Virus record (IMG/VR): IMGVR_UViG_3300028534_000019
Span: 31,091-95,090 of that record
Strand: one strand, 5' to 3'
DNA from: a virus
Lineage: Duplodnaviria > Heunggongvirae > Uroviricota > Caudoviricetes
DNA: 64,000 bases
Shown here: one piece after another, positions 9,932 to 30,669 of the stretch
How the letters are laid out: each line of letters opens with the position of its first letter
Numbering within the stretch: position 1 is the stretch's first letter
The notes under the pieces: generated by a model
Told to the model about the DNA's origin: nothing
The model's database searches: none
The model's input: only the letters and a program-made list of their open reading frames with translations
Program-made: the position numbers and the translations under genes

Positions 9932-10387
9932 ATGAATAAACAAAAGTTTTATTTTAATAGTGAACATTTTGAATATGCTATTAATGACATTAAAAATAGA
10001 GTCCTATTGAATGTTAAAAAAGATGGTTTACAGATTGTTTCAGTGTTTAAGGATGGTTTACCTTTGGGTGTAAGGTTATCAAATGAATTTAATACAGGGT
10101 TGAGTATTATAAATTATGAAAAGTTTAGCTCAAATTCTGATAGTGTAACATTGCTTAAAGATGATGGTTTAAGAGGTGCTACAAATATATTAATTGTAAG
10201 TGACTTAGTACAAGATAAAAAGGGTTTTGAAAAAATTGTAAAATATATTAAAGAAAAATATGATAAAGAACCTATTATATACACTTTATTTGGTGACCCT
10301 TTGGAAAATAATACTAGATGGAATTTTACATTTAAAGAAAATGGACAGAAAATTCAATTCATTCCTTGGGTTGGAATGGATGTATAA
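9932..10387 (+). CDS. hypothetical protein, weak phosphoribosyltransferase-like motif
   Basis: NILIVSDLVQDKKGF loosely resembles the type-I PRT motif (hhhVDDhhDTGgT). Weak call. Confidence 0.3.
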   Translation: MNKQKFYFNSEHFEYAINDIKNRVLLNVKKDGLQIVSVFKDGLPLGVRLSNEFNTGLSIINYEKFSSNSDSVTLLKDDGLRGATNILIVSDLVQDKKGFEKIVKYIKEKYDKEPIIYTLFGDPLENNTRWNFTFKENGQKIQFIPWVGMDV

Positions 10388-10411
10388 ATAATTCTAAAAT
10401 AGGAGAAAGAA

Positions 10412-10999
10412 ATGAAAAAATTTAGTGAATATATGAGTGAAAAAGCACTTGTAGAAGAAATGGAAGATAAGATAGGTTTAATGTTATATATGGCAGAAAA
10501 AAGTGATATTATAGCTGAATCTTATGATTTTGAAAATTTAACAGAAAGCCAAAGAATTGTACTTGAAGAAGGTGTAAATGATTGGTTAAACAAAGTTGGT
10601 CTTAAATTACATAAAACAAAAGGTATTATTGATTATTTAGCTGATTTTACTAAAGGTACAGGTAAAGTTCTTATGTCAGCAATTAAAGGTGATAAAGAGG
10701 CTGTTAAAGAACAACTTAAAAATGTTAAAAAAGAAGAAGTTTTAGATTTCTTACTTAAATTAGATATGGCTACATTACATATTGTTACCGGCCCGATACA
10801 CTTAATTGATGCTGTTACAGGTTGGGATTTAATGGCTAATGTTAAAGCAGTAGCTAAAACAGCAACTGATAAACTTAAAGAATTTTATCAAGCAATGAAA
10901 AAAGTAAAAGAAACAATTACAACTGTTTTACAAGGTACTAAACAAAAGAAAATGTTACAATTAGCAACAAACTTAGAAACAACAATTCCTGCACCTTAG
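10412..10999 (+). CDS. hypothetical protein
   Basis: 195-aa ORF. Confidence 0.45.
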   Translation: MKKFSEYMSEKALVEEMEDKIGLMLYMAEKSDIIAESYDFENLTESQRIVLEEGVNDWLNKVGLKLHKTKGIIDYLADFTKGTGKVLMSAIKGDKEAVKEQLKNVKKEEVLDFLLKLDMATLHIVTGPIHLIDAVTGWDLMANVKAVAKTATDKLKEFYQAMKKVKETITTVLQGTKQKKMLQLATNLETTIPAP

Positions 11000-11019
11000 A
11001 ACAAAAAAAAGGATTTTAA

Positions 11020-11538
11020 ATGCCAAAATTTGGTAAAAGAAGTAAAAGAAACTTAGAAACTTGTCATAGAGATTTAAGAATTATATGTAATGAAGCAATT
11101 AAATATTTTGATTTTTCTGTTATATATGGTATAAGAAGTGAAGAAGAACAATTTAAACTTTTTAATGAAGGCAAATCTCAACTTGATGGTATCCATAAAA
11201 AATCAAAACACCAAGGCAGAAAGTGTGAAAAACTTGATGCTGGTGTAGATGAAGAACACAAAATTTTAACAGATGAAGATGGTGATGCTATTGCTTCTTT
11301 TGCTGTTGATTTAATGCCTTACTATAAAGGTTTCAATCCTTTTACAAATGAGTCAGGAACTAAACTTTTTTATTACCAAGCAGGATTAATAATGGGGATA
11401 GCCGCTAGACTTTATGAAGAGGGAAAAATAAAACATACTTTAAGATGGGGTGGAAATTGGGATAATGATATGGACTTTTTCGGAGATTCTCATTTCTTTG
11501 ATTTACCACACTTTGAATTAGTAATACCTAAAAAATAG
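11020..11538 (+). CDS. peptidase M15-like (VanY / L-Ala-D-Glu peptidase fold) candidate cell-wall hydrolase
   Basis: TCHRDL...GIRSEEEQ...SKHQ...AVDL arrangement resembles the M15 Zn-binding H/D/H scaffold. Moderate call. Confidence 0.4.
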   Translation: MPKFGKRSKRNLETCHRDLRIICNEAIKYFDFSVIYGIRSEEEQFKLFNEGKSQLDGIHKKSKHQGRKCEKLDAGVDEEHKILTDEDGDAIASFAVDLMPYYKGFNPFTNESGTKLFYYQAGLIMGIAARLYEEGKIKHTLRWGGNWDNDMDFFGDSHFFDLPHFELVIPKK

Positions 11539-11741
11539 GGTATTACTATGAAGATATTTAAAAAAATTATTTTATCTATGATTATAAGTTTAAGCCTTTT
11601 TGTTTTTGACCCTTATAAACTTAACAGGTTAAGAGATTATCATAAAATTGAAAACACAAAATAACCTTAAAGACTTATAAAACTTACAATAACCTTACAA
11701 CACTACATAAAGTATTATAAATAATTATAAAAGGATTTATA

Positions 11742-12089
11742 ATGCTTTATACTTACAGAATTAAAAAAATACACAAAATATATGATGGTGATACAATTAC
11801 AGCAGAACTTGATTTAGGATTTAAGATTTCATTTATTGAAAAGATTAGATTGTCTTTTATTGATGCTCCTGAAATAAGAGGGGAAGAAAGAGAAGAAGGA
11901 TTAAAATCAAGATTATGGTTAGTAGAACATTTAAACTCAGCTATATCTAAAGGTGATGATGTTTTTGTTAGAACAAATAAAGATAGCCAAGGTAAATATG
12001 GAAGATATTTAGGGGATATTATAATTAATGGGGAGTCACTTAATCTAAAGATGGTTGAAGAGGGTTATGCTGAACTTTATAAAAAGTAA
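11742..12089 (+). CDS. staphylococcal-nuclease-like (SNase/thermonuclease) nuclease
   Basis: DGDT...IRLSFIDAPE...YGRYLGDI...VEEGYAELY matches SNase catalytic core motifs. Confidence 0.75.
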   Translation: MLYTYRIKKIHKIYDGDTITAELDLGFKISFIEKIRLSFIDAPEIRGEEREEGLKSRLWLVEHLNSAISKGDDVFVRTNKDSQGKYGRYLGDIIINGESLNLKMVEEGYAELYKK

Positions 12090-12099
12090 AGGTTTTATT

Positions 12100-13872
12100 A
12101 TGGAAGGAATATTTAATAAATTAAAAGAACATAATAAAGATGTTGTACTTAGTGATGAAGAGAAAAATAAAGTTTTAAGTGTTATAGATATAGAGAAAAA
12201 TAAAGAGGGTTTATATGTAGATGCCTTTGGTATGCCTATATCGCATAATGGGTTAAGAGATTTAAAAAAAGAGAAAACACAAATAAATCTTTCAGAAACA
12301 TTAATAAATGAAATTAAAACATCATATTTAGATTATTATTATTTTAGAGAAAATTATTGTAAAATTGTTACTAAAAAAGGTATTAAAAGACCTGAGCCAA
12401 GACCATACCAAAAAAGGTTAGAAGATGATTTAGTAACAGGTGAAGATGTTTTAGCATTTTGGCCGAGACAATCAGGAAAATCTGTAACTATTTCAACTTA
12501 TCTATTATGGAAAGCAATTACAACACCTAATATTAATATTGGTATAGCGGCAAATGTTCAAAAATTAGCTATGGAAGTATTAGACAAAATAAAAAATATA
12601 TTTTTGGAGTTACCTATTTGGATGAAGCCGGGTATAAAGGTTTGGAATAAAGGTTCTATTGAATTTGAAAATGGTACAAGAATTTTAACCTCAGCAACTA
12701 ATGGTGATGCTTTTAGGGGGTTTACTATTAATATATTATATGTTGATGAGGTTGCTTTTATTAGACATAGTGTGTGGGAAGAATTTGCTGATTCTGTTTT
12801 CCCTGCTCAAGAAGCACTTATGGAAAAACAAACTATTATGTCAAGTACGGCTGGTGGGCTTAATCATTGGTATCATTTAGTAGAGGGTGCTAGAAAGGGT
12901 AAAAATGGTTATAGAATAGCTGAAGCAAGTTGGAAAGAAGTTCCTAGATGGAAAAAAGATGGTACTCTTAAAACACCTGATGAATTTAAGGCTGAAATAA
13001 TAGCTAAAAATGGAGAGATGTTTTTCCAACAAAATTTTGGTAACTCTTTTTTAGGTAGTTCTAAAACTTTAATAGATTCACAAGCATTAAAAAATATTGA
13101 ACCTATGGATGATGATGAAATTTTGTTTGATAATGTTTTTAATGGACTAAGAATTTTTAAAGAGCCAAAACCTAATCATAATTATATAGTTACTTGTGAC
13201 CCCAAAAAAGAGGGTTTGGATAGTGCTGGATTACAAGTTGTTGATGTTACAAATTTACCTTTTGAACAAGTAGCATCAGCACAATTACACGAGAGTTATT
13301 TAACAATTCCTGGTAAATTAAATGATTTAGGGTTGTATTATAATAAGGCTATGATAGTATGTGAAAATAATGTAGCTGAGTCTATACCTAGTACTGTATA
13401 TTATAATTATGAATATGAGGGTGAAGTCTTTATAGAAAAAGATAGTAAGGGTCGCCCTAAAAAGGAAATGGGCATTAGGACAACTACCAAAACAAAAAGA
13501 TTAGGTTTAACTCTATTAAAGAAATTTGTAGAGAATGGAAACCTAATAATAAATGATACAAAAACATTAGATGAATTATTTAACTTCATTGAATATAAAG
13601 ATGGTATATATAAAGCAGAAGAGGGTTATCACGATGACCTTGTTATGTCATTAATGCTTGTTTTTGCTCCATTTTTAGATTTTAAAAACTTTGATGATTT
13701 TAGAGGTTTTGTTGATTATCTTGATAAAAAAGAAAAACAACAAGAAGAGAATGATAAAGAGATGGAAGAATTTATGGATTTAGGTTTTAGTTCTGATGAT
13801 GATTTGGAAGATGACGGGCCGTTTACTAAGGATATTTGGGGAAATAGAGATATGGTTGGTGGCTTCATATAA
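12100..13872 (+). CDS. 17: terminase large subunit (T4 gp17 family)
   Basis: Walker A PRQSGKSV (T4 SRQLGKT), Walker B ILYVDEVAF, and a C-terminal nuclease-like region. The longest ORF begins at 12055 inside the SNase gene, but the ATG at 12100 after the SNase stop is the likely start. Confidence 0.85.
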   Translation: MEGIFNKLKEHNKDVVLSDEEKNKVLSVIDIEKNKEGLYVDAFGMPISHNGLRDLKKEKTQINLSETLINEIKTSYLDYYYFRENYCKIVTKKGIKRPEPRPYQKRLEDDLVTGEDVLAFWPRQSGKSVTISTYLLWKAITTPNINIGIAANVQKLAMEVLDKIKNIFLELPIWMKPGIKVWNKGSIEFENGTRILTSATNGDAFRGFTINILYVDEVAFIRHSVWEEFADSVFPAQEALMEKQTIMSSTAGGLNHWYHLVEGARKGKNGYRIAEASWKEVPRWKKDGTLKTPDEFKAEIIAKNGEMFFQQNFGNSFLGSSKTLIDSQALKNIEPMDDDEILFDNVFNGLRIFKEPKPNHNYIVTCDPKKEGLDSAGLQVVDVTNLPFEQVASAQLHESYLTIPGKLNDLGLYYNKAMIVCENNVAESIPSTVYYNYEYEGEVFIEKDSKGRPKKEMGIRTTTKTKRLGLTLLKKFVENGNLIINDTKTLDELFNFIEYKDGIYKAEEGYHDDLVMSLMLVFAPFLDFKNFDDFRGFVDYLDKKEKQQEENDKEMEEFMDLGFSSDDDLEDDGPFTKDIWGNRDMVGGFI

Positions 13873-16601: not shown

Positions 16602-17051
16602 ATGATATATTCAAATAATAAAAAAGTAAAACACGACTATGAAATAATTGAAACATTTGAGGCAGGTGTTGTTTTGAGCGGTCCGCAAGTAAAATCAATT
16701 AGAAAAGGTTCTTTAAGCCTTAAAGGTTCTTATGTTAGTCTTGATGATGGTGTTTTATCATTAAAACAATACTCACTTGCTAGACCTGATTATTTGGATG
16801 CTTTTAGTTCTTTTGATGATAAACCAATAAAATTTTTACTCAAAAAAAGAGAGATTAAAAAATTACAAAAAAAGATTCAAGAAAAAGGTTTAACATTATC
16901 TATAACAAAAGTTTATCAACCTGAAAATACTAGATTTATTAAGGCTGAGTTAGTTCTTGTGAGAGGTAAAAAACTATATGATAAAAGAGAAGATTTAAAA
17001 AAGAAAACACAAGAAATGGATATGAAAAAGGCTATAAAATATGATAGATAA
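16602..17051 (+). CDS. smpB: SsrA-binding protein SmpB
   Basis: Collinear with E. coli SmpB: KHDYEIIETFEAGVVLSGPQVKSIRKGSLSLKGSYV vs [36 protein letters not shown]. C-terminal GKKLYDKREDLKKK vs GKKQHDKRSDIKER. Confidence 0.9.
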   Translation: MIYSNNKKVKHDYEIIETFEAGVVLSGPQVKSIRKGSLSLKGSYVSLDDGVLSLKQYSLARPDYLDAFSSFDDKPIKFLLKKREIKKLQKKIQEKGLTLSITKVYQPENTRFIKAELVLVRGKKLYDKREDLKKKTQEMDMKKAIKYDR

Positions 17052-17250
17052 TCTAAAAAGTGCTGATGAAATATATTTAGTAGTACAGTTTGGAGCAAAA
17101 GATTTTAACAATAGAACACAAGAATTGATTGATGAAAATTATATTCCATTTAGTGATGTTGCTGTTCAAAGTTTTCACGATGAATTTTGCTTTTCACAAC
17201 AGTTTATAAAAAATCCAAAATACATAGAAGAAACAAAAAGGAAAATATAA
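17041..17250 (+). CDS. hypothetical small protein
   Basis: 69-aa ORF bridging smpB and the next gene. Confidence 0.35.
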   Translation: MIDNLKSADEIYLVVQFGAKDFNNRTQELIDENYIPFSDVAVQSFHDEFCFSQQFIKNPKYIEETKRKI

Positions 17251-18041
17251 TGTTAATAGTACCTGTTGGTTTGCCTGGTTCAGGAAAAACTGTTTTATCA
17301 AGAAAATTTAATACAGTTATAAATGCTGATGAATTGTTTAAGGATAATTATACATTAGATGATTTAATAAATTATATAAAAGAATATAATTATACAGTAA
17401 CAGATGTTTATTTGGATGGTTTATTTATTACAAGGAATTTAGTTAAGAAATTGATTGAAACTTTTGATTATTATATTAGATTAGTATATTTTAAACCTAA
17501 TATAGAAAATTGTATCTACAATGATTTATCAAGAAATAGAGAAAAAGATAGTGTTAATATAATTTATGGTTCTGATTTAAGTTTTATGAAAGAAAGTTAT
17601 TTTAGAAATAAAATAAGAGAAACAATGGAAGTATATAAGGCTGATTATGTAGAATATATAAAAGAAGAAAATAACTTTCAAAATTATATAGAAACACAAG
17701 AGTATGTCTTAGAAGGAAGTACATATGGTACTTGTTGGGATGAAGACGGCCCGTCTGAAACAACACCTGATGACCCATACCATTTTACTGATTTTACAGA
17801 ACTTGAAAAGATATTTAAAAAAATGAATATTCCTTATACAGAAGAAAATTATAATAAAATTGAAAGTGTTATAGAAGAAGAAGATAGAAGTGAGGGTGAT
17901 TATTATGGTGGTTATGCTTATAAAGAGGTTTATAGAGTTGAAGTTACATTATTAATAAAAGCAATACTAAAAGAGTTTTTTGGTATTGATAAAACAGATA
18001 TGGCATATATTAAAAAAGAATACCCTGAACTAATATTTTAA
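17250..18041 (+). CDS. P-loop kinase (polynucleotide-kinase-like kinase domain) ending ...KKEYPELIF
   Basis: MLIVPVGLPGSGKT Walker A at the N-terminus, as in the T4 Pnk kinase domain (ILTIGCPGSGKST). The ORF track extends to 17187, but the ATG at 17250 gives the P-loop at the N-terminus. Confidence 0.5.
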   Translation: MLIVPVGLPGSGKTVLSRKFNTVINADELFKDNYTLDDLINYIKEYNYTVTDVYLDGLFITRNLVKKLIETFDYYIRLVYFKPNIENCIYNDLSRNREKDSVNIIYGSDLSFMKESYFRNKIRETMEVYKADYVEYIKEENNFQNYIETQEYVLEGSTYGTCWDEDGPSETTPDDPYHFTDFTELEKIFKKMNIPYTEENYNKIESVIEEEDRSEGDYYGGYAYKEVYRVEVTLLIKAILKEFFGIDKTDMAYIKKEYPELIF

Positions 18042-18056: not shown

Positions 18057-18569
18057 ATGGTAGAAGAAAATAATTTTAGAGAAACAAAAACACATATTTA
18101 TTTTTGGGGTAGTATCTATTCTCAATGGTACACTTCAAAAAACCAATTCAAAGAAGATGGATTTATTTTTCAAAATGCTGAACAGTATATGATGATGAAA
18201 AAAGCAGAACTTTTTAAAGATTATGATGTATTAGAAAAAATGAAACAAACAAGTAATCCAAAGGTATTAAAAAAATTGGGTAGAGAAATTAAAGGTTTTG
18301 ATGAAGATATTTGGAATTTTAATAAAATGGATATTGTTGAAAGAGGGAATTTTTTAAAGTTCTCTCAAAATCCTAAGTTATTAGAAAAACTTATAGCACA
18401 CAAAAATAAACATATAGTAGAAGCATCACCTTATGATAAGATTTGGGGTATTGGGCTTCATTGGTCAGATGATAAGGTATTAAATGAAAGTACTTGGAAT
18501 GGTGAAAATCTTTTAGGTAAATGTATTATGTCAGCAAGAGATAAAATTTTAAATCCAAAATCTATATAA
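18057..18569 (+). CDS. NADAR-domain protein (YbiA-like, ADP-ribose/NAD-related N-glycosidase family)
   Basis: Collinear with E. coli YbiA: FWGSIYSQWY, NAEQYMMMKKAELF, FSQNPKLLEKL, VEASPYDKIWGIG (YbiA: VEHTENDAYWGDG). Confidence 0.8.
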   Translation: MVEENNFRETKTHIYFWGSIYSQWYTSKNQFKEDGFIFQNAEQYMMMKKAELFKDYDVLEKMKQTSNPKVLKKLGREIKGFDEDIWNFNKMDIVERGNFLKFSQNPKLLEKLIAHKNKHIVEASPYDKIWGIGLHWSDDKVLNESTWNGENLLGKCIMSARDKILNPKSI

Positions 18570-18639
18570 TAAGAAAAAATTAAATAAAAATATTATATAA
18601 TTAAGAATTAAAACATTTAAAACACAAAGGAGATAATTT

Positions 18640-20490
18640 ATGGCAGTTATTGGTATAGATTTAGGAACGACAAATAGTGCTGTTTCAGTTTATGAAGTAG
18701 GGGAATTTAAAATTATTCCTAATGCTGAGGGTAAAAATACAACACCTAGTATTGTAGCATTTACAGATAAAGGGGATGTATTAGTAGGGGAATCAGCAAA
18801 AAGACAAGCAGTCACAAACCCTGAAAAAACTATTGAAGCAATTAAAAGAATTATGGGTATGCAATTTAATGAACCTAGATGTAAAGAGGCTCAAGAAAAA
18901 GTACAATATAAAATTGTAGATAAAAATGGTTTGGCCGCTGTTGATGTTGATGGTAAGATTTATACACCACAAGAAATTTCAGCTAAAATCCTTACAAAAC
19001 TAAAAGATGATGCAGAAGCATTTATTGGTAAAGAAGTTACAGATGCTGTAATTACAGTTCCAGCATACTTTAATGATGCTCAGAGAAAGGCGACACAAGA
19101 GGCAGGCGTTATTGCAGGGCTTAATGTACTAAGAATTATTAATGAACCTACTTCGGCCGCTCTTGCTTATGGTTTGGACAAAAAAGGTGAGGAAAATATT
19201 CTTGTTTATGATTTTGGTGGTGGTACTTTTGATGTATCTGTATTAGAAATTGGAGATGGTACTTTTGAAGTTCTTTCAACTGATGGTAATGCTTTCTTAG
19301 GTGGTAAAGACTTTGACCAAATTTTAGTTAATTATATTGCTGAATATTTTAAAGAGAAACAGGGTGTTGATTTAAGAAATGATAAAATGGCACTTCAAAG
19401 ATTATATGATGCTTCAGAAAATGCTAAAAAAGAGTTATCAAGTGTTGTAGAAACTGAAATTAACTTACCATTTATTACTATGACAGAAGCCGGCCCGCAG
19501 CATCTTGTTTTAAAAATTTCAAGAGGTAAATTTGAGGGGTTAGTACAAAATCTTGTAGATGAAACTATTGAACATATTACAACAGCATTACAAGACGCTG
19601 GTTTAAGTGTAGATGATATTAGTGAATTGATTATGGTTGGTGGCTCAACAAGAATACCTTTAGTACAAGAGGCAGTTTCAAAGTATTTTAAAGGTAAAAC
19701 TCTTAATAAATCTGTTAATCCTGATGAAGTTGTAGCCGCTGGTGCTTCAATTCAAGGTGGTGTATTAACAGGAGATGTAAAAGATGTTCTTCTTCTTGAT
19801 GTTACACCATTATCACTTGGTATTGAAACTATGGGTGGTATTGCTACTAAAATCATCCCAAAAGGTACAACTATTCCTGTTAAAAAATCAGAAATCTTTA
19901 GTACAGCAGTTGATAATCAACCAGCAGTTAGTATTGTAGTAGTACAAGGTGAAGCAAAATTAGCAGAAGATAATAAATCTTTAGGACAATTTAATCTTGA
20001 GGGTATAACACCAGCTAAAAAAGGTGTACCACAAATTGAAGTTAATTTTGATGTTGATTCTAATGGTGTTTTGAGTGTATCAGCTATTGATAAAGGAACA
20101 GGTAAAGAACAGAAAATAACAATTACAGGTTCGACAGGTTTAAGTGAAGAAGAAATTAGAAAGATGATTGATGATGCTGAAAAACAAAATCAAGAAAAGG
20201 CTGAAAAAATTAAAGCAATTGAAGCAAAAAATGAATTGGATGCTACTCTTTCAAGAATTAAAAACTTTAATGATGAAGAAAAAAATGAAGTGCTATCAGC
20301 TAAAATTTCTGATGTTGAAGAATATGTAAAAGAAGATAGAACAGCAGAAGAAATTAGAAAAATTAGAGATGAACTTGAAGAAGTTTATTTAAAAGCATTT
20401 GAAGAGAAATCAAAAAGAAATGAAGGTGCTGAGGTAAAAGAAAGCACTGAAAATAATGATGATGTTATTGATGCTGAAATTGAAGAATAA
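18640..20490 (+). CDS. dnaK: Hsp70 chaperone DnaK homolog (full NBD + SBD + lid)
   Basis: [26 protein letters not shown] and the substrate-binding domain are all canonical. Confidence 0.95.
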
Positions 20491-20501
20491 AAGAGGAAAA
20501 A

Positions 20502-21305
20502 TTGAAAAAATTATATAAAATTCTTGAAATTGAAGAAACTTCTACAACAGTAGAAATAAAAAAAGCATATAGAAAATTAGCTAAAAAATACCACCCTGAT
20601 GTTTGTAAAGAAGAGGGTGGTGAAGATAAGTTTAAAGAAATTAATAGAGCATATGAAGTTCTAAGCAATCCACAAGAAAAACAAAAGTATGATAGATTTG
20701 GTGATGAAATGTATGAAAAAATGGGGTCAGGTGGTGGAAGACCTAATCCAAATGCTGATGAGTTTGCAGAAGCAATGGCATCATTTTTCAACCAAAAGGG
20801 AAATCCCCGACAAGGTAATCCTTTTGGTATGGGTGGTAATCCTTTTATTCATACAACAATTCAAGCATATATTTCGATAGAAGATTTATTTAAAGGTACT
20901 TCTATACAATTACAAGATGGTACTAAAGTAAAAATACCACCTAGAACAATACCGGGTAGTAGGGTAAGAGTTAAAGGCAAAGGTATGTCAGATGGTAAAA
21001 ATACAGGAGATTTATTTATTATCATAACACCAAAAAATAATGATAAAGAATTTGTTGAGAATGATACTATTATAAAGATTATCAAAATTGATTTAGTTAG
21101 TATGATTTTTGGAAATGAAATAAAATATAATCATTATGGTAAAGATTTAATTGTTACTGTTCCAAAAAATACAAAGCCCGGTGACTTTGTACAAATTCCC
21201 AATCAGGGCTTAGGTACTCAGGGTTCATTAATTTTACATTTAGATTTAGAATTACCAAAAGCAGAAGATTTAGATGAAGAAAAAGTAAAAGAATTATTTA
21301 ATTAA
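20502..21305 (+). CDS. DnaJ-like J-domain co-chaperone (type II, no Zn finger), TTG start
   Basis: J-domain YKILEI...AYRKLAKKYHPDV...YEVLSNPQEKQKYD. Gly-rich linker and a DnaJ C-terminal domain. AAGAGGAAAAA RBS before the TTG. Confidence 0.85.
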   Translation: MKKLYKILEIEETSTTVEIKKAYRKLAKKYHPDVCKEEGGEDKFKEINRAYEVLSNPQEKQKYDRFGDEMYEKMGSGGGRPNPNADEFAEAMASFFNQKGNPRQGNPFGMGGNPFIHTTIQAYISIEDLFKGTSIQLQDGTKVKIPPRTIPGSRVRVKGKGMSDGKNTGDLFIIITPKNNDKEFVENDTIIKIIKIDLVSMIFGNEIKYNHYGKDLIVTVPKNTKPGDFVQIPNQGLGTQGSLILHLDLELPKAEDLDEEKVKELFN

Positions 21306-21364
21306 TATACAATTAAGGTTTCTTTTGCTATAATTTCATCATATATAAACTAAAAGGATTCAAA

Positions 21365-21769
21365 ATGGCAAAAGAAAAAAGTTATGGGGTTGCTCCTTAT
21401 TTAATTATAAATGGGCAATATTATATATTGTTAAATAAAACATCAGAACATAGTAGATACAATTTCTTCAAAGGTAAAATTGAAGAGGGTGAAACTATTG
21501 CTCAATGTGCCAAAAGAGAATTTTGGGAAGAAACAGGTGTAGAAGTTGATGAGAGAGATTTTGAAGAATATTTTTTCCAAAAGTCTTCTAAAAAAGATGT
21601 TGGTATTTTTTTAATTAATTGGTCTAAATATATTAATAAAAAATTTCAATTTCAAAAAAGAGAAATTTGGGCTTCTTATTGGGTAGAGGTTGATGATGTT
21701 CAAACATCCAAAAACCAAAAAGAAATTGTTGATTCTATTGAATCTTTTTTTAAAAATAAATCTGAGTAA
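21365..21769 (+). CDS. Nudix hydrolase
   Basis: Nudix box GKIEEGETIAQCAKREFWEETGV (GX5EX7REUXEEXGU). Confidence 0.8.
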   Translation: MAKEKSYGVAPYLIINGQYYILLNKTSEHSRYNFFKGKIEEGETIAQCAKREFWEETGVEVDERDFEEYFFQKSSKKDVGIFLINWSKYINKKFQFQKREIWASYWVEVDDVQTSKNQKEIVDSIESFFKNKSE

Positions 21770-21785
21770 AAAGTAAAGGTAAAAA

Positions 21786-22823
21786 ATGTCTAAAGAAATT
21801 GATGGATATGTAGTAAAACAAGAAACAGTTCAAGGTGTAATGAGTATTGAAGATATTGAAAAGAATTTCAATTCTTTTGTTAAAGAGATAGATTCAAATA
21901 TGGATAAAATGTCCACTGTAATACAAAATGATGAGTTAAATCAAATTAGTGATGAAATTCTTAAAGCAAAAGAATATATTGAAACATTTTCAAGAGGTGA
22001 AACAAAAAGTTTTAAAGAAAAAACACTAAGCCATTTAGGTAATGTACCGATGATTGGGGATTGGGCTAAGGGTAAGTATGAAGAAGTCAGAAGAACAAAT
22101 TTTGAAAATAGTTCTGTTAAAGAAATTATTGAGGGTATTTTTAATACTTTTGAAGAAAAGAAGAAAAGACTTATTGTTTTGAGTGAAAATATTGATTTAC
22201 TTAGAAGTAATTTACAAGTACAAGAGGCAAAACTTGAAGAGTATATTGTTCAACTTGATTATATTATTGATAATACAACTAGCTCAGGTGAAAAACTTAA
22301 AGCAATTGATATGAGTATTGTTGCTCAATCTCAAAGACAAGTGGTTAAAGAAATGTTATATAATCAAATTGATTTTATTCTTAACCTTATGGAAACTTTA
22401 ATGGTTAAAATTGTAAAAACTTTACCTGTTCTTAAAAATACATTAAATAGTTCTGTAAACATAGCGGCAACTATTAATAGTATGAAAGATACTGTTGAAA
22501 TGATGAACTCTTTAGAAGAATTGACAAATAAAGTTACACAAGAATCAACAAATAATATTCAAAGTCTTATTATTGATGTTATGGATAACTTCTCAGAAAA
22601 AATTGATGAAGAATTTTATGAAAAAGCCGCTGATAGAAATATACAGTTTACTAAAGATTTGATTGATTCAAGAAAAAAATATATTGAAAAATCTGTTAAA
22701 GGTTATAAAAATCTTAAAAGTATTGAGGTAAAAATGCAACAAGCACTTCTTGAAAGAGCAAATGCTGAAGAAGAAACATTACAAATTATGCAGTCAAGTA
22801 CAATTTCATCAGAGGCTGTGTAA
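21786..22823 (+). CDS. coiled-coil protein (possibly TelA-like; weak)
   Basis: 345 aa and long alpha-helical. The resemblance to toxic-anion-resistance TelA is an impression only. Confidence 0.35.
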   Translation: MSKEIDGYVVKQETVQGVMSIEDIEKNFNSFVKEIDSNMDKMSTVIQNDELNQISDEILKAKEYIETFSRGETKSFKEKTLSHLGNVPMIGDWAKGKYEEVRRTNFENSSVKEIIEGIFNTFEEKKKRLIVLSENIDLLRSNLQVQEAKLEEYIVQLDYIIDNTTSSGEKLKAIDMSIVAQSQRQVVKEMLYNQIDFILNLMETLMVKIVKTLPVLKNTLNSSVNIAATINSMKDTVEMMNSLEELTNKVTQESTNNIQSLIIDVMDNFSEKIDEEFYEKAADRNIQFTKDLIDSRKKYIEKSVKGYKNLKSIEVKMQQALLERANAEEETLQIMQSSTISSEAV

Positions 22824-23236
22824 TGGAAAATTCTGAATTTTATATTGAGATAAATAACACTATTTTATTTTGTCCTGATATTTTGACGGCTGAAAGAAAA
22901 TATGATGAGGTTTTATTGACTTGTAACAATGGTACTGAAATAATTTTATCAGATGCTAAATATCTTGATGAGATACTAGATAAAAAAGCAAACTTTCATA
23001 AATTACAAAATATTGTGAATGTAGATAAAACAATTTTAGATATTGAGGAAAAAGTTAAACAAAAAAGTTTAGCAAATATTCAGGAAATTGAAGATAAATT
23101 TAAAAGTTCTTTAGCTCAAACAGAATCAAAAATTGATAGTATTAGACAAACTATAAGCACTATTGACCCATCAAGAGCAGTGAGTTTGGTTGATGATATG
23201 GAAACACTTTTATCAAAATTTAAGGCTTTAATCTAA
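22823..23236 (+). CDS. hypothetical protein
   Basis: 137-aa ORF, start overlapping the previous stop. Confidence 0.45.
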   Translation: MENSEFYIEINNTILFCPDILTAERKYDEVLLTCNNGTEIILSDAKYLDEILDKKANFHKLQNIVNVDKTILDIEEKVKQKSLANIQEIEDKFKSSLAQTESKIDSIRQTISTIDPSRAVSLVDDMETLLSKFKALI

Positions 23237-23245
23237 AGGAATAAT

Positions 23246-24100
23246 ATGTTCAAAAAAGATAAAAATACCTCAACTATTTTAAAAGTTATTAAAGAGTATG
23301 ATAATATTCAGAAATTGTTTAATATAGAGTTGGATAAAGCAACATCAGAACAATTTGTGGATGAACTTAAAAAACAACTTAAATTAAATTTAGAAACTCT
23401 ATCTATCTTAACTGAAAAAACAGAGGTGTTTTCAGATACAAAAACATTTACAGGTTTTGGTTTTAGGTTGCCATATGAAGAACAAAAAATAGAGTATCTA
23501 AAATATGATAATATTTCAAGTGATGAAGAAAGTGCTTATAATATAATTGAGCATAATAAATTTATAACTTTATATAAACATAAAAAAGAATATAAAAAAA
23601 TCTTTACAAAAGAAAGTATATATTTTGAAAGTGTTTTATTAGAAATTAATAAAATATATGGTAGTATAAAAAGTGATTATTCACATAATACAGAATTAAG
23701 AGATGCTTTATTTATTATTAAAGAGTTTTCAAGAACAACACAAAAAGGTGTAGTTTATTATATTTCTTTAAGATATATAGAAAAATTTTTGATAGAAGTA
23801 TTTCCAACATTTTCAAATGTAATAAAAAAAGAATTTAAAGACTATAAAGAAAATACAAAAAATGATTTTGGGTATTGGAAAATAGAAAATTTATATAATA
23901 TTTTATTAGGATTTGAGTCTTTAATTTCATATTCAAAACAAAAAGATGAGTTTACCTTTAGACCAAGAATTAGTGTATCTATAATTTTAAAAAATGAAGA
24001 TGGTTATGTAACTAAGAAAATATTAAAAGAACTAATGAAAGAAACAAGGTATTTAGATTTTAAAATTTATCAGAAAAATAAAAAGGATAGTAATGAATAG
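23246..24100 (+). CDS. hypothetical protein
   Basis: 284-aa ORF. Confidence 0.45.
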   Translation: MFKKDKNTSTILKVIKEYDNIQKLFNIELDKATSEQFVDELKKQLKLNLETLSILTEKTEVFSDTKTFTGFGFRLPYEEQKIEYLKYDNISSDEESAYNIIEHNKFITLYKHKKEYKKIFTKESIYFESVLLEINKIYGSIKSDYSHNTELRDALFIIKEFSRTTQKGVVYYISLRYIEKFLIEVFPTFSNVIKKEFKDYKENTKNDFGYWKIENLYNILLGFESLISYSKQKDEFTFRPRISVSIILKNEDGYVTKKILKELMKETRYLDFKIYQKNKKDSNE

Positions 24101-24380
24101 ATATTCAAAAGATGAAACAATAAAAACATTCTTAACACAAAATAAAGCAACTATAATTTATGATGGTATGTATAAACTTGTTTTTGATGATGGTGGTGTT
24201 ATGATAACAACTAAAACTTCTGATGAGATGTTTTCATTCTTAATTGGTTATAAGTATGCTAGTATGAATTATGAAAAGATTTTAGAGAGAATTAATACTG
24301 AACACAATAATATGGTAAAACAGTATGATGAACAAATGAACATTATGTCATCTATGGTTGAAGATAAAGAAGAAAATTAA
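24093..24380 (+). CDS. hypothetical protein
   Basis: 95-aa ORF overlapping the previous stop. Confidence 0.4.
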   Translation: MNRYSKDETIKTFLTQNKATIIYDGMYKLVFDDGGVMITTKTSDEMFSFLIGYKYASMNYEKILERINTEHNNMVKQYDEQMNIMSSMVEDKEEN

Positions 24381-24447
24381 TTTTAATTTTTAATTTTCTT
24401 TTAATATTAAAATGCTATAATTACATAATTAAAAAAGAAGGATATTT

Positions 24448-25548
24448 ATGTTAGTTCAAAATAAAAAAGTTCCAAAAGAAACATTAGAGTTATTGGACTC
24501 TAAAATAGAAGAATTTGAAAAAAATACAAATTCAACTGTTTTATATATTACAATTACAGGTTCTGTTCTTTATGGTACTGATAATGAAAATAGTGATTTA
24601 GATTTTAAAGGTATTTTTATGCCTAATCTAAAAGAAGTGCTTATTGGTAATACACCTAGTGCTTTTGTTTTTAATTCAAATACAAAAGATAAAAACTCTT
24701 CTGATGATATTGATTTAACATTACACCCTGTAAATGACTTCTTTAATCATCTTAGAAAATCTGAAACAGGTGCTGTTGATTTACTTTTTAGTATGTTTAG
24801 AGAAGATACTATTGTTTTTGATGATGGTATTTTCACGAACTTTATGAAGAAAAATTATCAAAAGTTTAGAAATTCTAATATGAAAAGTTTTATCGGTTAT
24901 GCTGTTGGTCAAACTAAAAAATTTGGGATTAAAGGTGCTAGATATGAAGAGTTAGATGTTTTTTATAAAGATTGTGTTAATTATTTTAATCTTGCTCCAA
25001 AAGAAAATAAATTAGGTGAATATTGGGATTTTCTTGAACTAAAAGCCCAAGGTAAAAAATATATTAAGTTTACAAAAGCAGAAGGTGCTAGAAGAAATGA
25101 TGGTAGTAGTAATATCATTGATTATATTTCTGTTCTTGGTAAACTATATCATAAAGATGTAACAGTAGGTTATTTTTTAGAAAGAGTTTCTAAATTTTAT
25201 AATCAATTTGGTAATAGAACTAAAACAGTAGCTAAAACTGAATCAAAAACAGATTGGAAAGCAATGAGCCACGCCCTTAGAGTAGCTATGGAAGTTAAAG
25301 AGTTACTTCAATTTGGTTTTATTAAATTTCCATTGACTTATGCTGATGAGATTAAAGAAGTTAAATTTGGTAACAGAGAAGAACAAGAAACATTAGATAA
25401 AATTAGAGATGTATTGGGTGAAGTTGATACAATATTAGAAAATATTGATAAAGATAACTTTCCTTGTGAAATGAGTGAAGAATTACTTAAAAAATTAAAA
25501 TGGGAAGTAATTCTTCTATATAAAGAGTTTTTAGATTTAGGTTTTTAA
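24448..25548 (+). CDS. nucleotidyltransferase-fold protein (Pol-beta / CD-NTase-like GS...D.D motif)
   Basis: ITGSVLYGTDNENSDLDFKGIF is the [GS]x9-13 Dh[DE]h signature. A third acidic DIDLT lies downstream. 366 aa. Confidence 0.55.
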   Translation: MLVQNKKVPKETLELLDSKIEEFEKNTNSTVLYITITGSVLYGTDNENSDLDFKGIFMPNLKEVLIGNTPSAFVFNSNTKDKNSSDDIDLTLHPVNDFFNHLRKSETGAVDLLFSMFREDTIVFDDGIFTNFMKKNYQKFRNSNMKSFIGYAVGQTKKFGIKGARYEELDVFYKDCVNYFNLAPKENKLGEYWDFLELKAQGKKYIKFTKAEGARRNDGSSNIIDYISVLGKLYHKDVTVGYFLERVSKFYNQFGNRTKTVAKTESKTDWKAMSHALRVAMEVKELLQFGFIKFPLTYADEIKEVKFGNREEQETLDKIRDVLGEVDTILENIDKDNFPCEMSEELLKKLKWEVILLYKEFLDLGF

Positions 25549-25549
25549 A

Positions 25550-26602
25550 ATGGATTTTGATTTTGATGAAATTGTTGCTACAAGAACTTATGTTGATTGT
25601 TATTGTAATGATAATATAAGTTCAGATGATATTAAAGGTATATTAAATCCTAATTTTATTAATAAAACATTAAATGAAATAGATAATTTTTTATATGGTG
25701 GTTTTAATTATTTTAGTAAAAGAGTTCCATTCACTTTAGCTGGTGGTTCTCTTCTTAGTTATTGTTCTTATTATATAGCTACAAAAAATGATTATGGTAA
25801 TCCAAAAAGTTATTTAGATTGGTTGGAATATTCAGGTAATTCTGATATTGATTTATTTTTTGAATGTGAGGAAGATTATATAAAAATGCTTGAAGCAGTA
25901 CAAAAAAATGGTTTTAGTAATTTATCACCTAAACCAAATGCTAAAAGTTTTTATAAAAAAAGAGGAAAAAATAAAAATACAATTTCAATAGATTTAGTAC
26001 ATAAAGATTATTCAGCACCACAAAAACTTATAGATAGATTTGATTTGAATAAGAGTAAAATTGCTATAAGTTCTTATGGCAATCTTTATATAGGTAATGA
26101 TTTTGATAATTATCTTTGTTTAAATCCATTAAATATAAATTATAATACTATATCAAGATTTAAAAAATATTCTATAACAAAACATATACAACCTTCATAT
26201 AAAACTTTACAAGAACTTGTACATATTTTCATTGATAAACAAGATGAAGTATATGAAAGTTTTTATAATGATGAAAAAAGAGATATACCTATGTATGGTG
26301 GGCTTGAAAATCTGATTACAATTATTGTAGATTGTAAAAAGTTATATAACATAGATTTAAAACTTAGTCGTGATGAGGTATTTAACTTATATTTAATATT
26401 GGAGAAACATTTTTCTGAAAAAGATAGATTAATTTCTTTTTTTACAAAAATAATTAATGAAGATAGTATTGATTATATACCTAAAATATATGAATTATTA
26501 TTACAACGACAAGATAGATTTTATGGAAAACAATTTGAAGATAATATGGATGAATCTATTAGAGATAAAGTTTTAGAAACATACCCTGAAATAATGTTTT
26601 AA
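25550..26602 (+). CDS. second nucleotidyltransferase-fold protein, ending ...VLETYPEIMF
   Basis: LAGGSLLSYC...SGNSDIDLFFECEE NTase signature. 350 aa. Start 2 nt after the previous stop. Confidence 0.5.
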   Translation: MDFDFDEIVATRTYVDCYCNDNISSDDIKGILNPNFINKTLNEIDNFLYGGFNYFSKRVPFTLAGGSLLSYCSYYIATKNDYGNPKSYLDWLEYSGNSDIDLFFECEEDYIKMLEAVQKNGFSNLSPKPNAKSFYKKRGKNKNTISIDLVHKDYSAPQKLIDRFDLNKSKIAISSYGNLYIGNDFDNYLCLNPLNINYNTISRFKKYSITKHIQPSYKTLQELVHIFIDKQDEVYESFYNDEKRDIPMYGGLENLITIIVDCKKLYNIDLKLSRDEVFNLYLILEKHFSEKDRLISFFTKIINEDSIDYIPKIYELLLQRQDRFYGKQFEDNMDESIRDKVLETYPEIMF

Positions 26603-26664
26603 CACATAAAAATTAAGTAATATTACTATATAATATGACTTATTAAATATAATAAAGGAAAAAA

Positions 26665-27576
26665 ATGGAAGAACAAATAGCGATTGATTTAGGCTATTCA
26701 ACATCAAAAGTTGCTTATGCTGATAAAATAGCAAAATTCCCAACTGCTGTTTCTTTTGCTACTGATGTAGGTACATCATATGGTGAAGGGAATATTTATG
26801 ACTTTGAGGGAGATAAGTATTATGTGGGTAGTGAAGCCGCTGATGCTGAGGCTTTTACAACTATGGATTTTAAATTTTTATATAAATTTGCTCCTCTTCT
26901 TATCTATCATATTTTAAGTAAATTTGATAAAGCAGAACTTGAAAAACCTATTGTTGTAAAAACAGGATTGGCAATTGTTGATTGGCATAAAAAAGATGAT
27001 TTTATTGAAAGAATTTCAAAAATTGAAGTGAATGGGCAAACTGTTGAAACAACACCCATTCTTATTCCTCAAGGTGCTGGATGTGCTGTTGATTGGGTTT
27101 CATCAGATAATGATGGAGAATGGCCGGACAATCTTACAGTAGTTGATATTGGTTATAATACTATTAACCTTATATCATTTTTAGAGGGTAAACCAATTAG
27201 AAAAAATATGAAAAGTTACCCAGGACACGGTGTTTCTAGTATAATTAAACCTTTTACTAGTTATCTTGAAAATACTTTTGGTACAACATTTTCAGAACAA
27301 GAAGCAATTAAATTTTTTGTTAAAGGTACTTTTAAATATAATGGTGAAGACCAACCTAAAGTATCAGAAAAAATTACAGAATTAAAATCACAATTTGTTA
27401 AAAAAATGTTTCAATCTGTTTTAGTTTCTGATAAAAAACTTCTTGCTATGTCAGATGTAGTGCTTATTGCTGGTGGTGGTGCTTATTTACTTCAAGATAT
27501 TCCATTCCCGCCAAATGTTGAGTTTGTTGATTCTCCTTATGAGTTCAGTAATACTCGTGGTTATTTAATTTCATAA
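26665..27576 (+). CDS. actin-like ATPase of the ParM/StbA/Alp family
   Basis: Phosphate-1 IAIDLGYSTSKVA, phosphate-2 VVDIGYNTINL, adenosine motif LIAGGGA. 303 aa. Confidence 0.75.
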   Translation: MEEQIAIDLGYSTSKVAYADKIAKFPTAVSFATDVGTSYGEGNIYDFEGDKYYVGSEAADAEAFTTMDFKFLYKFAPLLIYHILSKFDKAELEKPIVVKTGLAIVDWHKKDDFIERISKIEVNGQTVETTPILIPQGAGCAVDWVSSDNDGEWPDNLTVVDIGYNTINLISFLEGKPIRKNMKSYPGHGVSSIIKPFTSYLENTFGTTFSEQEAIKFFVKGTFKYNGEDQPKVSEKITELKSQFVKKMFQSVLVSDKKLLAMSDVVLIAGGGAYLLQDIPFPPNVEFVDSPYEFSNTRGYLIS

Positions 27577-27589
27577 AAAAGGATAAAAA

Positions 27590-27931
27590 TTGTTAAAATT
27601 ATGGTATAGAATTAAGTGTTTTTTTGGACACTGTTTAGAACTTGATATTATTAAAAGTAAGGAAGAAATTAGAAAAAGAGATTATGATGTTTCTAAAGCA
27701 CCTTATAAAGTTGAAGGTGTGGCTGAGGAATTTCCACAAGAATTTAAAGATATTCTTGAAAAGAAAGAAGATAAAGAAAATGAGTCTGAAAAAACAGAAA
27801 AACTTAAAAGGGCTTGGTTCAATAATGGAGTTGAACAAAGATTAGTTCAAATTCAACCTATTGATGAAAGTTTAAGTTTACCTGATGGATGGGTAAAAGG
27901 TAAATTAAAAAAAGGTATGAATAATGAGTAA
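27590..27931 (+). CDS. hypothetical K/E-rich protein
   Basis: 113-aa ORF. Confidence 0.4.
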   Translation: MLKLWYRIKCFFGHCLELDIIKSKEEIRKRDYDVSKAPYKVEGVAEEFPQEFKDILEKKEDKENESEKTEKLKRAWFNNGVEQRLVQIQPIDESLSLPDGWVKGKLKKGMNNE

Positions 27932-28136
27932 AAATAGATATGGTGTCAGAGACGCTTATAAAAATTTAGCAAACATCACAAAAACAATTAATACTCTTAG
28001 TGGTGAAGCCCTTGAAGAGGCAGAAAGAAAAATTTATCTTTATAGAGATTTTATTGATTATTCAAGAGATTTATACAATAATGGTTTGATAAATCAGAAA
28101 GAATTAAAAGGTTTAGGTAAGGTAGATAATGGATAA
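27924..28136 (+). CDS. hypothetical small protein
   Basis: 70-aa ORF. Confidence 0.35.
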   Translation: MSKNRYGVRDAYKNLANITKTINTLSGEALEEAERKIYLYRDFIDYSRDLYNNGLINQKELKGLGKVDNG

Positions 28137-28428
28137 TGTAAAACCAACAAGTGTATCTATTAATTTAGATGAACACTCAGTAAAAACAATTAAAAAAGTA
28201 AATAGCATACATAGAGATTCTTTAATCAATATTGGTATTGCTATGGTGGCAAAAACACCTTATTATAAAACATTATTAGGTGTAGAACAAGAAGATTTAG
28301 ATGAAGTAGCATCATTAGATATGTTAGATGAAGAAAATGAAACTACAACATCAAAAAAATCTAAAAAGAAAGAAGAAACTAAAACAGAAGTAAAAGCAAA
28401 ACCTACATCTTCTTGGGATAGTTTCTAA
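28129..28428 (+). CDS. hypothetical protein
   Basis: 99-aa ORF. Confidence 0.4.
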   Translation: MDNVKPTSVSINLDEHSVKTIKKVNSIHRDSLINIGIAMVAKTPYYKTLLGVEQEDLDEVASLDMLDEENETTTSKKSKKKEETKTEVKAKPTSSWDSF

Positions 28429-28442
28429 TAAAAGGAACAATT

Positions 28443-28889
28443 ATGATTTTAGATAAAATCACAAAAGAACAATTATTAGCAAGAAAGAATAGAGATACCT
28501 TTAAAACAGGTATCTTAACTACATTAATGTCAGAAGTATCTATTATAGGTAAGAATAAAGGTAATAGAAAAACAACTGATGAAGAAGCAATTGCTGTTAT
28601 AAAGAAATTTATTTCAAATGCTGAAAATAACATTGAATCTCTTCAAGGTTCTCATAATTGGGAAAATTGTACTGAAAGTATTCAAGAATTTCAAGATGAA
28701 ATAGAATTACTTCAAGGTTTTTTACCAAAACAAATGACCGAAGATGAGTTAAAAGTATCTATTGAAGTTATGGTTTCAAAAGGTGCTAACAATATTGGTG
28801 CTATTATGGGTACTCTTAAAAAAGAATATGGTGGATTATATGATGGCAAGATGGCTAGTAAACTAGCTAAAGAAGTTTTATCAAAATAA
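28443..28889 (+). CDS. GatB/YqeY-domain protein
   Basis: 148 aa. The C-terminal KGANNIGAIMGTLKKEYGGLYDGKMASKLAKEVL matches the YqeY/GatB C-terminal helical domain pattern. Confidence 0.6.
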   Translation: MILDKITKEQLLARKNRDTFKTGILTTLMSEVSIIGKNKGNRKTTDEEAIAVIKKFISNAENNIESLQGSHNWENCTESIQEFQDEIELLQGFLPKQMTEDELKVSIEVMVSKGANNIGAIMGTLKKEYGGLYDGKMASKLAKEVLSK

Positions 28890-28940
28890 TTAACATATTT
28901 TATGTTATAATTCTAACATAAAAATAAAAAAAGGATATTA

Positions 28941-30667: not shown

Positions 30668-30669
30668 AG

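Follow-up and report, generated by a model that had tools for sequence, protein, structure and literature searches.

The genes at positions 18057–21769 of the window, by which we mean the whole 64-kb stretch of phage DNA that was analysed, encode a NADAR protein, a DnaK–DnaJ chaperone pair and a Nudix hydrolase. Judging from sequence, we lean towards an account in which the NADAR protein is an active N-glycosidase that counters ADP-ribosylation of DNA by the host, the Nudix hydrolase is an independent enzyme resembling T4 NudE.1, and DnaK and DnaJ are an insertion. Taken as a whole this account, in which the stretch would be part of an accessory-gene region with two independent small enzymes split by an inserted chaperone pair, seems to us somewhat probable. 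An earlier sequence-only reading had placed the same four genes here, with the Nudix gene 2.8 kb downstream of the NADAR gene, and had proposed a shared theme of ADP-ribose and nicotinamide adenine dinucleotide (NAD) handling. The gene calls and the 2.8-kb spacing held up, and all four open reading frames (ORFs) are intact, co-oriented on the plus strand and confirmed by Pfam:

18057–18569, plus strand: stand-alone NADAR protein, 170 residues (PF08719, E 3.8e-45)
18640–20490, plus strand: DnaK (Hsp70), 616 residues (HSP70, E 1.7e-230)
20502–21305, plus strand: DnaJ, 267 residues (J domain, E 2.2e-24; DnaJ_C, E 1.1e-16)
21365–21769, plus strand: stand-alone Nudix hydrolase, 134 residues (PF00293, E 3.6e-14)

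The NADAR assignment, which the sequence-only reading had called unmistakable, is borne out by family, fold and active site. PF08719 matched the protein with 154.5 bits against a cutoff of 35.1, over profile positions 11–162 of 163, and its AlphaFold model (predicted local distance difference test, pLDDT, 95.8) has the fold of solved NADARs, an alpha-helical core with small beta hairpins on its flanks, and retrieved only NADARs in a Foldseek search, including the Phytophthora nicotianae protein PnNADAR (PDB 8BAU; TM score 0.82) and E. coli YbiA (2B3W; TM score 0.74). PnNADAR, a guanine-ADP-ribose hydrolase that differs in being eukaryotic and in having an extra insertion in its fold, was also the best solved homologue by sequence (E 5.4e-19, 72 bits, 30% identity), whereas YbiA matched with E 1.1e-5 and 28.7 bits. 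The 8BAU protein was crystallised with ADP-ribose, which is contacted by E43, K50, R79, W89, R93, E125, D130 and W133 (Schuller et al., PMC11543638). These residues align to E42, K49, R76, W86, K90, E122, D127 and W130 of the window NADAR, so that the catalytic and ADP-ribose-binding positions are all kept, and the only swap among the contacts is R93 to K90. The catalytic Glu and Lys are E43 and K50 in PnNADAR and E36 and K43 in AdfN-T4, the T4 enzyme; E42, K49, W86, E122 and D127 of the window protein are invariant across 36 NADAR homologues. The E125 position splits the NADAR families, with Glu in YbiA-type proteins, Asp in DarT-linked proteins and His in T4-type phage NADARs (PMC11543638), and the window NADAR has Glu (E122). 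Its NADAR core starts near residue 8, and there is no N-terminal extension.

An experimentally characterised relative is the NADAR of phage Bas62 (bas62_0106, MZ501084), which gave 38% identity to the window NADAR by tblastn (E 4e-23) and 40% in an alignment, with similarity across residues 8–155. Both are stand-alone phage NADARs of similar size that share the E...K, LGR, W and VEASPYD..(W/Y)GI motifs and Glu at the E125 equivalent; the Bas62 protein differs by two insertions. Johannesman et al. found that the NADAR common to Bas60, Bas61 and Bas62 neutralises DarT1 in cells and restores plaquing of RB69, T5 and Bas25 against DarTG1, but is inactive against the thymidine-specific DarTG2 (PMC11825919). 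Activity and DarTG1 rescue are known for the Bas60-type protein only, to which we liken the window NADAR by sequence, and whereas Bas60, Bas61 and Bas62 are Stephanstirmvirinae coliphages, the window comes from an uncultured, low-GC, T4-like phage. In vitro, all four NADAR families hydrolyse guanine-ADP-ribose (G-ADPr), and the NADAR and YbiA families also hydrolyse cytosine-ADP-ribose (C-ADPr), on both DNA and RNA (PMC11125620; PMC12945103). What these comparisons establish is that the protein is a NADAR in family and fold, that its active site is complete and that it is homologous to an anti-DarT1 enzyme of proven function.

The window NADAR is most likely, as predicted from these features, an ADP-ribosyl N-glycosidase of the AdfN type that acts on DNA or RNA carrying ADP-ribose on guanine and possibly on cytosine. 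A DarT1-like or pierisin-like ADP-ribosyltransferase of the host would modify single-stranded DNA or RNA of the phage, and during infection the NADAR would hydrolyse the N-glycosidic bond that joins ADP-ribose to guanine (possibly also to cytosine), which would free ADP-ribose and restore replication. The Nudix hydrolase would independently split the pyrophosphate of adenosine dinucleotides or of 5' caps, as T4 NudE.1 does, and may incidentally consume ADP-ribose released by the NADAR. We infer both the substrate in vivo and a host with a DarT1-like toxin. The sequence-only reading had suggested that marks placed by DarT-type toxins are removed, and with 38–40% identity to the DarT1-neutralising Bas62 protein this is the best-supported role. 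The window thus adds one more case to a counter-defence that is already known and does not reveal a new system.

Other members of the superfamily fit less well. T4 gp30.3 (AdfN-T4) is likewise a NADAR of a T4-like phage, lies in a variable accessory region and has the same proposed role. However, BLASTP detected no similarity between it and the window NADAR (E 6.4), it has no NCBIfam match, and it carries His where the window protein has Glu122. Membership of the T4-type phage family is ruled out on these grounds: gp30.3 is a member of another NADAR family, and the two phages gained their genes independently. DarG1, the antitoxin of DarTG1, is of the same superfamily with the same proposed chemistry, but is encoded beside DarT1, is extended at its N-terminus by a DNA-binding part and has Asp in the key position (PMC11543638), none of which is found here; with no ADP-ribosyltransferase in the ORFs scanned, no extension and Glu rather than Asp, we rejected this identity. 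The NCBIfam anti-phage NADAR DS32_2 was also ruled out (38.7 bits against a cutoff of 240).

The window NADAR does pass TIGR02464, the NCBIfam model for riboflavin biosynthesis intermediates N-glycosidase (141.5 bits, cutoff 73.7), and the best NCBIfam match of the Nudix hydrolase is MutT, though at 36.2 bits it is far under the cutoff of 97.9. Both matches would fit a pair of enzymes with housekeeping roles only, the NADAR as a YbiA-type riboflavin-intermediate N-glycosidase and the Nudix as a MutT-like sanitiser of the nucleotide pool. However, because the validated anti-DarT1 protein bas62_0106 passes TIGR02464 too, the riboflavin label does not discriminate, and the gap between PnNADAR (72 bits) and YbiA (28.7 bits), with no riboflavin (rib) genes in the window, led us to rule out a YbiA-type riboflavin N-glycosidase. 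MutT structures rank well under Dcp2 and Ap4A hydrolases in the search with the Nudix subfamily profile. We consider a purely housekeeping pair highly improbable.

The Nudix hydrolase has an intact Nudix box (G37-x5-E-x7-R51-E52-x2-E55-E56-x-G-V59) that is invariant in its subfamily, and its model (pLDDT 96.5) gave 560 Nudix structure matches. The top Foldseek matches were Ap4A hydrolases and Dcp2 (TM score 0.71–0.79). Similarly, a 45-sequence subfamily profile searched against PDB listed 13 Dcp2 entries first (4.5e-17 to 9e-15), then an Ap4A hydrolase (9e-14), the ADP-ribose pyrophosphatase 4KYX (6.5e-12) and the African swine fever virus decapping enzyme g5R (2e-9), with RppH and MutT ranked much lower. 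The Dcp2 catalytic domain and Ap4A hydrolases are thus the closest solved sequences and folds, at about 20% identity. A true Dcp2 is ruled out: a Box A would not fit into 134 residues, true Dcp2 proteins that have one occur only among the remote matches, and the similarity is confined to the catalytic domain. To our knowledge, bacteria lack 7-methylguanosine (m7G) caps. An hhalign comparison with T4 NudE.1 gave 96% probability, but over 84 columns only and at 25% identity, and the T4-like jumbo phage GAP32 has a homologue, 32% identical, that carries the annotation NudE. Like the window enzyme, T4 NudE.1 is small, stand-alone and from a T4-like phage; its in vitro substrates are ADP-ribose, Ap3A, FAD, NAD and NAD-RNA, which it decaps, but it does not trim triphosphorylated RNA (ppp-RNA). 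The subfamily is rare, with 8 close relatives in 5.8 billion clustered proteins and, by profile, 117 cluster representatives at E ≤ 1e-10.

Two further Nudix classes were considered. ADP-ribose pyrophosphatases usually have an extra N-terminal dimerisation domain, and Dunn et al. are said to have described in 1999 a conserved proline about 16 residues past their Nudix box; the window enzyme is a bare 134-residue domain with no proline after residue 59, and we did not place it in this subfamily. NudC-type enzymes carry a SQPWPFPxS motif and a zinc-binding N-terminal domain. The motif is absent here, and the NCBIfam NAD diphosphatase model scored 30.3 bits against a cutoff of 158, so a NudC-type NAD(H)/NAD-RNA pyrophosphatase was likewise rejected. 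On the best reading, the window Nudix is a predicted pyrophosphohydrolase of adenosine-containing dinucleotides or of 5' RNA caps, similar to NudE.1.

DnaK starts 70 nt past the NADAR end, and no terminator was found between them in a scan that is uninformative in such AT-rich DNA (42 promoter/terminator sites against 43 expected). DnaJ combines an HPD-containing J domain with a Gly-rich linker and a C-terminal domain, and no zinc-finger domain was detected in it by Pfam. The sequence-only reading had noted that the NADAR and Nudix genes flank this pair. To examine gene order we used related loci, which we number with an L. A 97-kb contig, L008, shares with the window the terminase, neck, SmpB, protease, NADAR and Nudix genes and a 345-aa downstream gene. 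Its order is NADAR, four ORFs without an assigned function, Thg1, DUF7831, a 263-aa ORF, Nudix and the 345-aa orthologue, with no DnaK, DnaJ or other chaperone after the NADAR. Because this syntenic locus has NADAR and Nudix without either chaperone gene, DnaK–DnaJ is a lineage-specific, variable insert between them, and the flanking arrangement is a result of that insertion.

Other relatives have different chaperones at this position. In L014 the order is NADAR, Hsp20, DnaK (split by a GIY-YIG endonuclease ORF) and DnaJ (3421–9198). The nearest NADAR orthologues (59–63% identity) lie on contigs of 221 kb and 496 kb, where a 541-aa GroEL gene directly follows the NADAR with a 3-nt gap or an 8-nt overlap; GroEL follows the NADAR in L002 (10001–12145), L004 (the 496-kb contig; 10001–12146), L006 and L009. 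Three chaperone types thus occur after the same NADAR gene: DnaK–DnaJ, Hsp20–DnaK–DnaJ and GroEL. No chaperone was found within 6 kb of the NADAR in any of 80 bacterial loci, for which reason we rejected an en-bloc gain of NADAR–DnaK–DnaJ from a bacterium, nor in the searched flanks (up to 10 kb) of viral loci outside this clade.

The recurrence of a chaperone directly after orthologous NADARs (52–63% identity), and its restriction to this clade, raise the question of whether the NADAR and the following chaperone are a functional pair, in which the NADAR would depend on the chaperone for its stability or localisation, or both would take part in repairing ADP-ribosylated proteins. AdfN-T4 requires a further phage factor for full activity (PMC11825919), a point in favour of such a pair. 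However, the syntenic L008 has no chaperone after its NADAR, and the pattern can be explained by an ancestral insertion hot-spot with chaperone-for-chaperone replacement. We know of no NADAR that acts on proteins. A functional pair therefore seems to us hardly likely. A related idea, that the NADAR heads a chaperone cassette whose chaperone is a helper for full NADAR activity, or acts with it to rescue ADP-ribosylated misfolded proteins, is very unlikely. The simplest account of the adjacency is one ancestral insertion hot-spot with replacement of chaperones in situ.

Some further features of the chaperone genes were seen. The L014 DnaK (4554–7705) is broken into two ORFs, with 88% and 67% identity to the DnaK of the window, by an insert of about 1.4 kb that carries a 272-aa GIY-YIG SegE-like endonuclease ORF (5628–6446), a candidate intron or homing-endonuclease insertion within a phage chaperone gene. 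The window also encodes a second, more divergent Hsp70 paralogue (39844–41706, plus strand; HSP70, E 4e-141), starting 72 nt past a transfer-messenger RNA (tmRNA) gene, which brings the Hsp70 genes of the phage to two, beside a single DnaJ; a GrpE was not seen. The tmRNA gene (39452–39772, plus strand; Rfam RF00023, 90.8 bits) encodes, by ARAGORN, the tag peptide ANNTDYTGNTVLSA, and together with SmpB (16602–17051, plus strand; PF01668, E 1.7e-38) it gives the phage a complete trans-translation pair.

Several points weigh against an anti-DarT1 role for the NADAR and a NudE.1-like role for the Nudix. Cihlova et al. reported that YbiA and the T4 NADAR cleave G-ADPr in vitro without rescuing cells from DarT1 (PMC11125620), so in vitro activity is no proof of a physiological role. 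A DarT1-type toxin in the host is an assumption on our part; bacterial NADAR homologues (40–48% identity) are scattered over unrelated phyla and therefore give no clue to the host. The substrate of the Nudix cannot be read from sequence, and the ADP-ribose pyrophosphatase 4KYX, at 6.5e-12, is among its profile matches. Finally, homologous NADARs elsewhere lie within clusters of NAMPT, NMNAT–Nudix, Macro and phosphoribosyl pyrophosphate (PRPP) synthetase genes, which fits a role on soluble ADP-ribose derivatives.

This last point leads to an alternative in which the NADAR and Nudix act on soluble NAD-derived molecules and so blunt NAD-based immunity or feed NAD recycling, the NADAR cleaving ADP-ribose derivatives (signals, toxic metabolites or salvage intermediates) and the Nudix converting ADP-ribose or NAD to AMP. 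Its weight depends on the neighbourhoods of related NADARs, for which we compared 80 IMG/VR viral loci with homologues of the window NADAR and the 80 bacterial loci that carry the closest cellular homologues; IMG/VR scanned with one sequence alone yielded no close relatives of the NADAR, and an alignment-based scan supplied the viral loci. Around the viral NADARs there were 23 Nudix-profile matches within 5 kb and 4 at 5–10 kb, zones with similar amounts of sequence (binomial p 8e-4, or 7e-3 with identical layouts collapsed), and every Sir2 match was at most 4.2 kb from the NADAR. A typical locus, L064, has NMNAT-like–Nudix, NAMPT, NADAR, Macro, HAD_SAK_2, dCMP deaminase, Sir2 and PRPP synthetase genes, while L096 has RNA ligase, PRS, NADAR, NAMPT, RlaP and CCA-adding enzyme genes. 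In the nearest relatives a NAPRTase_N protein is encoded 5 kb upstream of the NADAR. Iyer et al. described this NAD-salvage and ADP-ribose-processing neighbourhood, in which NADAR, Macro, SLOG and Nudix co-occur above chance, and argued for a role on soluble derivatives (PMC7824862, PMC9503650). The ADP-ribose idea appeared as a prediction in these two papers and in work by de Souza and Aravind, as cited in PMC11543638, and as experiment in PMC11543638, PMC11125620 and PMC11825919. The bacterial loci show a related pairing: a Sir2 homologue lies within 6 kb of the NADAR in 14 of the 80, mostly Chryseobacterium (L100–L128), so the NADAR–Sir2 pairing is not confined to phages.

The window itself holds much less of this neighbourhood. 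We scanned with Pfam most ORFs of at least 80 aa in the first 24 kb and, from 24 to 64 kb, all ORFs of at least 110 aa apart from those at 27590–27931, 34815–35183, 36486–36833, 46887–47399, 47411–47935 and 58304–58654. In this set, which covers nearly all the larger ORFs of the 64 kb, there was no NAMPT, NMNAT, PnuC, Macro, PRPP synthetase or ADP-ribosyltransferase. The sequence-only reading had added a Sir2 protein and a NadR-like P-loop kinase to its theme, and these genes and the Sir2 neighbour are as follows:

4884–5633, plus strand: Sir2, a CobB-like classical sirtuin, 249 residues (PF02146, E 4.6e-28)
5621–6088, plus strand: DUF488-N3a protein, 155 residues (PF22751, E 8.8e-10)
8795–9316, plus strand: AAA_28 P-loop kinase-like protein, 173 residues (PF13521, E 2.7e-7)

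The Sir2 call is sound. The protein matches phrog_2162 (E 7.5e-52) and CobB-type deacylases in PDB (E 8.6e-31), and it has the GAG of FSGAGLDAPSG, the catalytic His in HIHGEL and a Cys4 zinc ribbon (C123xxC126...C144xxC147). Its gene lies 12 kb from the NADAR, beyond the terminase, protease and neck genes. The protein encoded at 8795 is indeed a P-loop protein (AAA_28, 31.4 bits against a cutoff of 27), but its likeness to NadR is supported no further than a family-level resemblance: no NMNAT domain was found, and a PDB sequence search gave no NadR structure. It matches phrog_2107, 'thymidylate kinase', and homologues in phages carry the annotation thymidylate kinase or AAA ATPase. Its neighbours encode soluble proteins without matches, and the 263-aa P-loop protein just upstream of the NADAR (17250–18041) has no usable PDB match and no PHROG or NCBIfam match. 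The enzymes that define NARP1, NARP2 (NAMPT and NMNAT) and NARP3 (NadR RNK-NMNAT and PnuC) were not found in the scanned ORFs of the window, and we set these pathways aside.

The KVP40-type neighbourhood, in which NAMPT and NMNAT–Nudix (NARP2) stand with NADAR, Macro and Sir2, makes the comparison concrete. NADARs 44–53% identical to the window protein sit in such clusters, and the window shares NADAR and Sir2 with them; unlike them, it has no NAMPT, NMNAT, Macro or PRPP synthetase among the scanned ORFs and its Sir2 is 12 kb off. Moreover, its Nudix is a stand-alone enzyme similar to NudE.1, Dcp2 and Ap4A hydrolases, not an NMNAT–Nudix fusion of the NatV type, an identity we rejected. In the papers we consulted we found no demonstration of a NADAR acting on a soluble immune signal, whereas de-ADP-ribosylation of DNA has been shown (PMC11825919). 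We regard action on soluble molecules as a tentative possibility and a rather unlikely one. As for the proposed theme, NADAR, Nudix and Sir2 do cluster in phages, an association that is real in phages generally and already published, but the window has only loose fragments of it and a Nudix that is not of the NAD-salvage type usually found beside a NADAR, so that the earlier interpretation is supported in part.

The anti-DarT1 reading treats the Nudix as an independent enzyme, and the gene company of its orthologues bears on this. In L090 the orthologue comes after Thg1 and near RlaP, and in L091 RlaP and YqeY come immediately after it; neither locus has a NADAR within 10 kb. The GAP32 homologue lies between a CCA-adding enzyme and glutaredoxin–YqeY. 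Downstream of the window Nudix are the following:

24448–25548: RlaP nucleotidyltransferase
28443–28889: YqeY
37321–38004: calcineurin-like phosphoesterase
38175–39122: CCA-adding-type PolyA_pol nucleotidyltransferase

The neighbours of the orthologues, together with RlaP, YqeY and the CCA-adding-type enzyme in the window, indicate that the Nudix goes with genes acting on RNA and tRNA ends. Its conserved company points to such ends and not to a dedicated NADAR–Nudix pathway. Relatives add Thg1 and RNA ligase to this run of genes (21365–39122).

The same genes would also fit an RNA and tRNA repair set, in which a KptA-like Sir2 cleans RNA ends with NAD, together with a kinase and a phosphoesterase that is DUF488 here and 2H in relatives, the NADAR disposes of ADP-ribose by-products and the Nudix trims or decaps RNA 5' ends. 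Besides RlaP, YqeY, the CCA-adding-type enzyme and the calcineurin-like phosphoesterase, the window's SmpB and tmRNA are in line with this, as are Thg1 adjoining the Nudix and RNA ligase near the NADAR in relatives and the closeness of the Nudix to the decapping enzyme Dcp2. In L004 (14012–15820) an AAA_28 kinase gene, to whose product the window AAA_28 protein is 37% identical, directly precedes a Sir2 gene (52% identical to the window Sir2) and an overlapping gene for a 2H/Acb1-like phosphoesterase, an order that matches the RNA-repair neighbourhoods of viral sirtuins (PMC9503650). The DUF488-N3a gene, which overlaps the end of Sir2 by 13 nt, holds the position of the 2H/Acb1-like gene, which suggests a Sir2-plus-phosphoesterase module with interchangeable partners; a literature search linking DUF488 with ADP-ribose or rhodanese returned nothing relevant. 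However, that viral sirtuins and NADARs serve in RNA repair has been predicted, with no experimental support found in the papers we consulted, Pfam identified no RNA ligase or KptA in the larger ORFs of the window, Sir2 is 12 kb from the NADAR, and T4 NudE.1 did not trim ppp-RNA. We therefore think an RNA-repair set unlikely and keep to an anti-DarT1 NADAR beside an independent Nudix.

The window is a segment of about 26% GC from a T4-like phage genome. It encodes a gp32-like single-stranded DNA-binding protein, an RNase H-like 5'-3' exonuclease and a primase-like protein; a T4-type large terminase, a ClpP-like protease, a neck protein and a tail-sheath stabiliser; and tail tube, gp5, gp6 and baseplate proteins. 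We found no close relative of the phage among 50,697 isolate phage records. Since the DNA-level similarity to isolate phages was to DnaK only, this is a phage without a sequenced close relative; a metagenomic contig of 100,859 bp encodes an identical NADAR protein. Homologues of the window NADAR are carried by 719 phage records, and a published survey found NADAR in 27% of myoviruses and in 48% of medium and jumbo phages (PMC9503650). The presence of NADAR and Nudix in one large myovirus is thus not surprising.

Some features of the window lie apart from these genes. A minus-strand gene block at 44791–47935 (tail sheath stabiliser gp15-like, tail tube gp19-like and others) breaks an otherwise all-plus window, and both GC skew and AT skew flip at the same place. 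At 47965–49618 and 49693–53952, two tandem T4_baseplate paralogues are followed by a 1419-aa protein with a VanY-type D-Ala-D-Ala carboxypeptidase domain at residues 872–959. A 303-aa actin-like protein (ALP_N/MreB-like_C; 26665–27576) is 67% identical to its counterpart in L090 and 27% identical to that in the 496-kb contig. A DUF2201 protein with a metallopeptidase and a VWA-like domain is encoded close to a MoxR-type AAA_5 ATPase (33465–36473), and such AAA_5/DUF2201 chaperone-like pairs have been described for group 2.2 jumbo phages (PMC7824862).

If the NADAR acts as we predict, an uncultured low-GC T4-like lineage joins the phages with NADAR counter-defence against DNA ADP-ribosylation by DarTG1. 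The Glu-type stand-alone NADAR family, which includes the Bas60-type protein, extends far beyond coliphages. The comparison also parts two things: a conserved phage neighbourhood of NADAR, NAD-salvage and Sir2 genes, and an unrelated NudE.1-like Nudix that goes with tRNA and RNA-end genes. The repeated presence of a chaperone gene directly after the NADAR is the only element that could lead somewhere new. If a tie between the two were true, improbable as we judge it, it would be the first link in phages between ADP-ribosyl reversal and protein folding.

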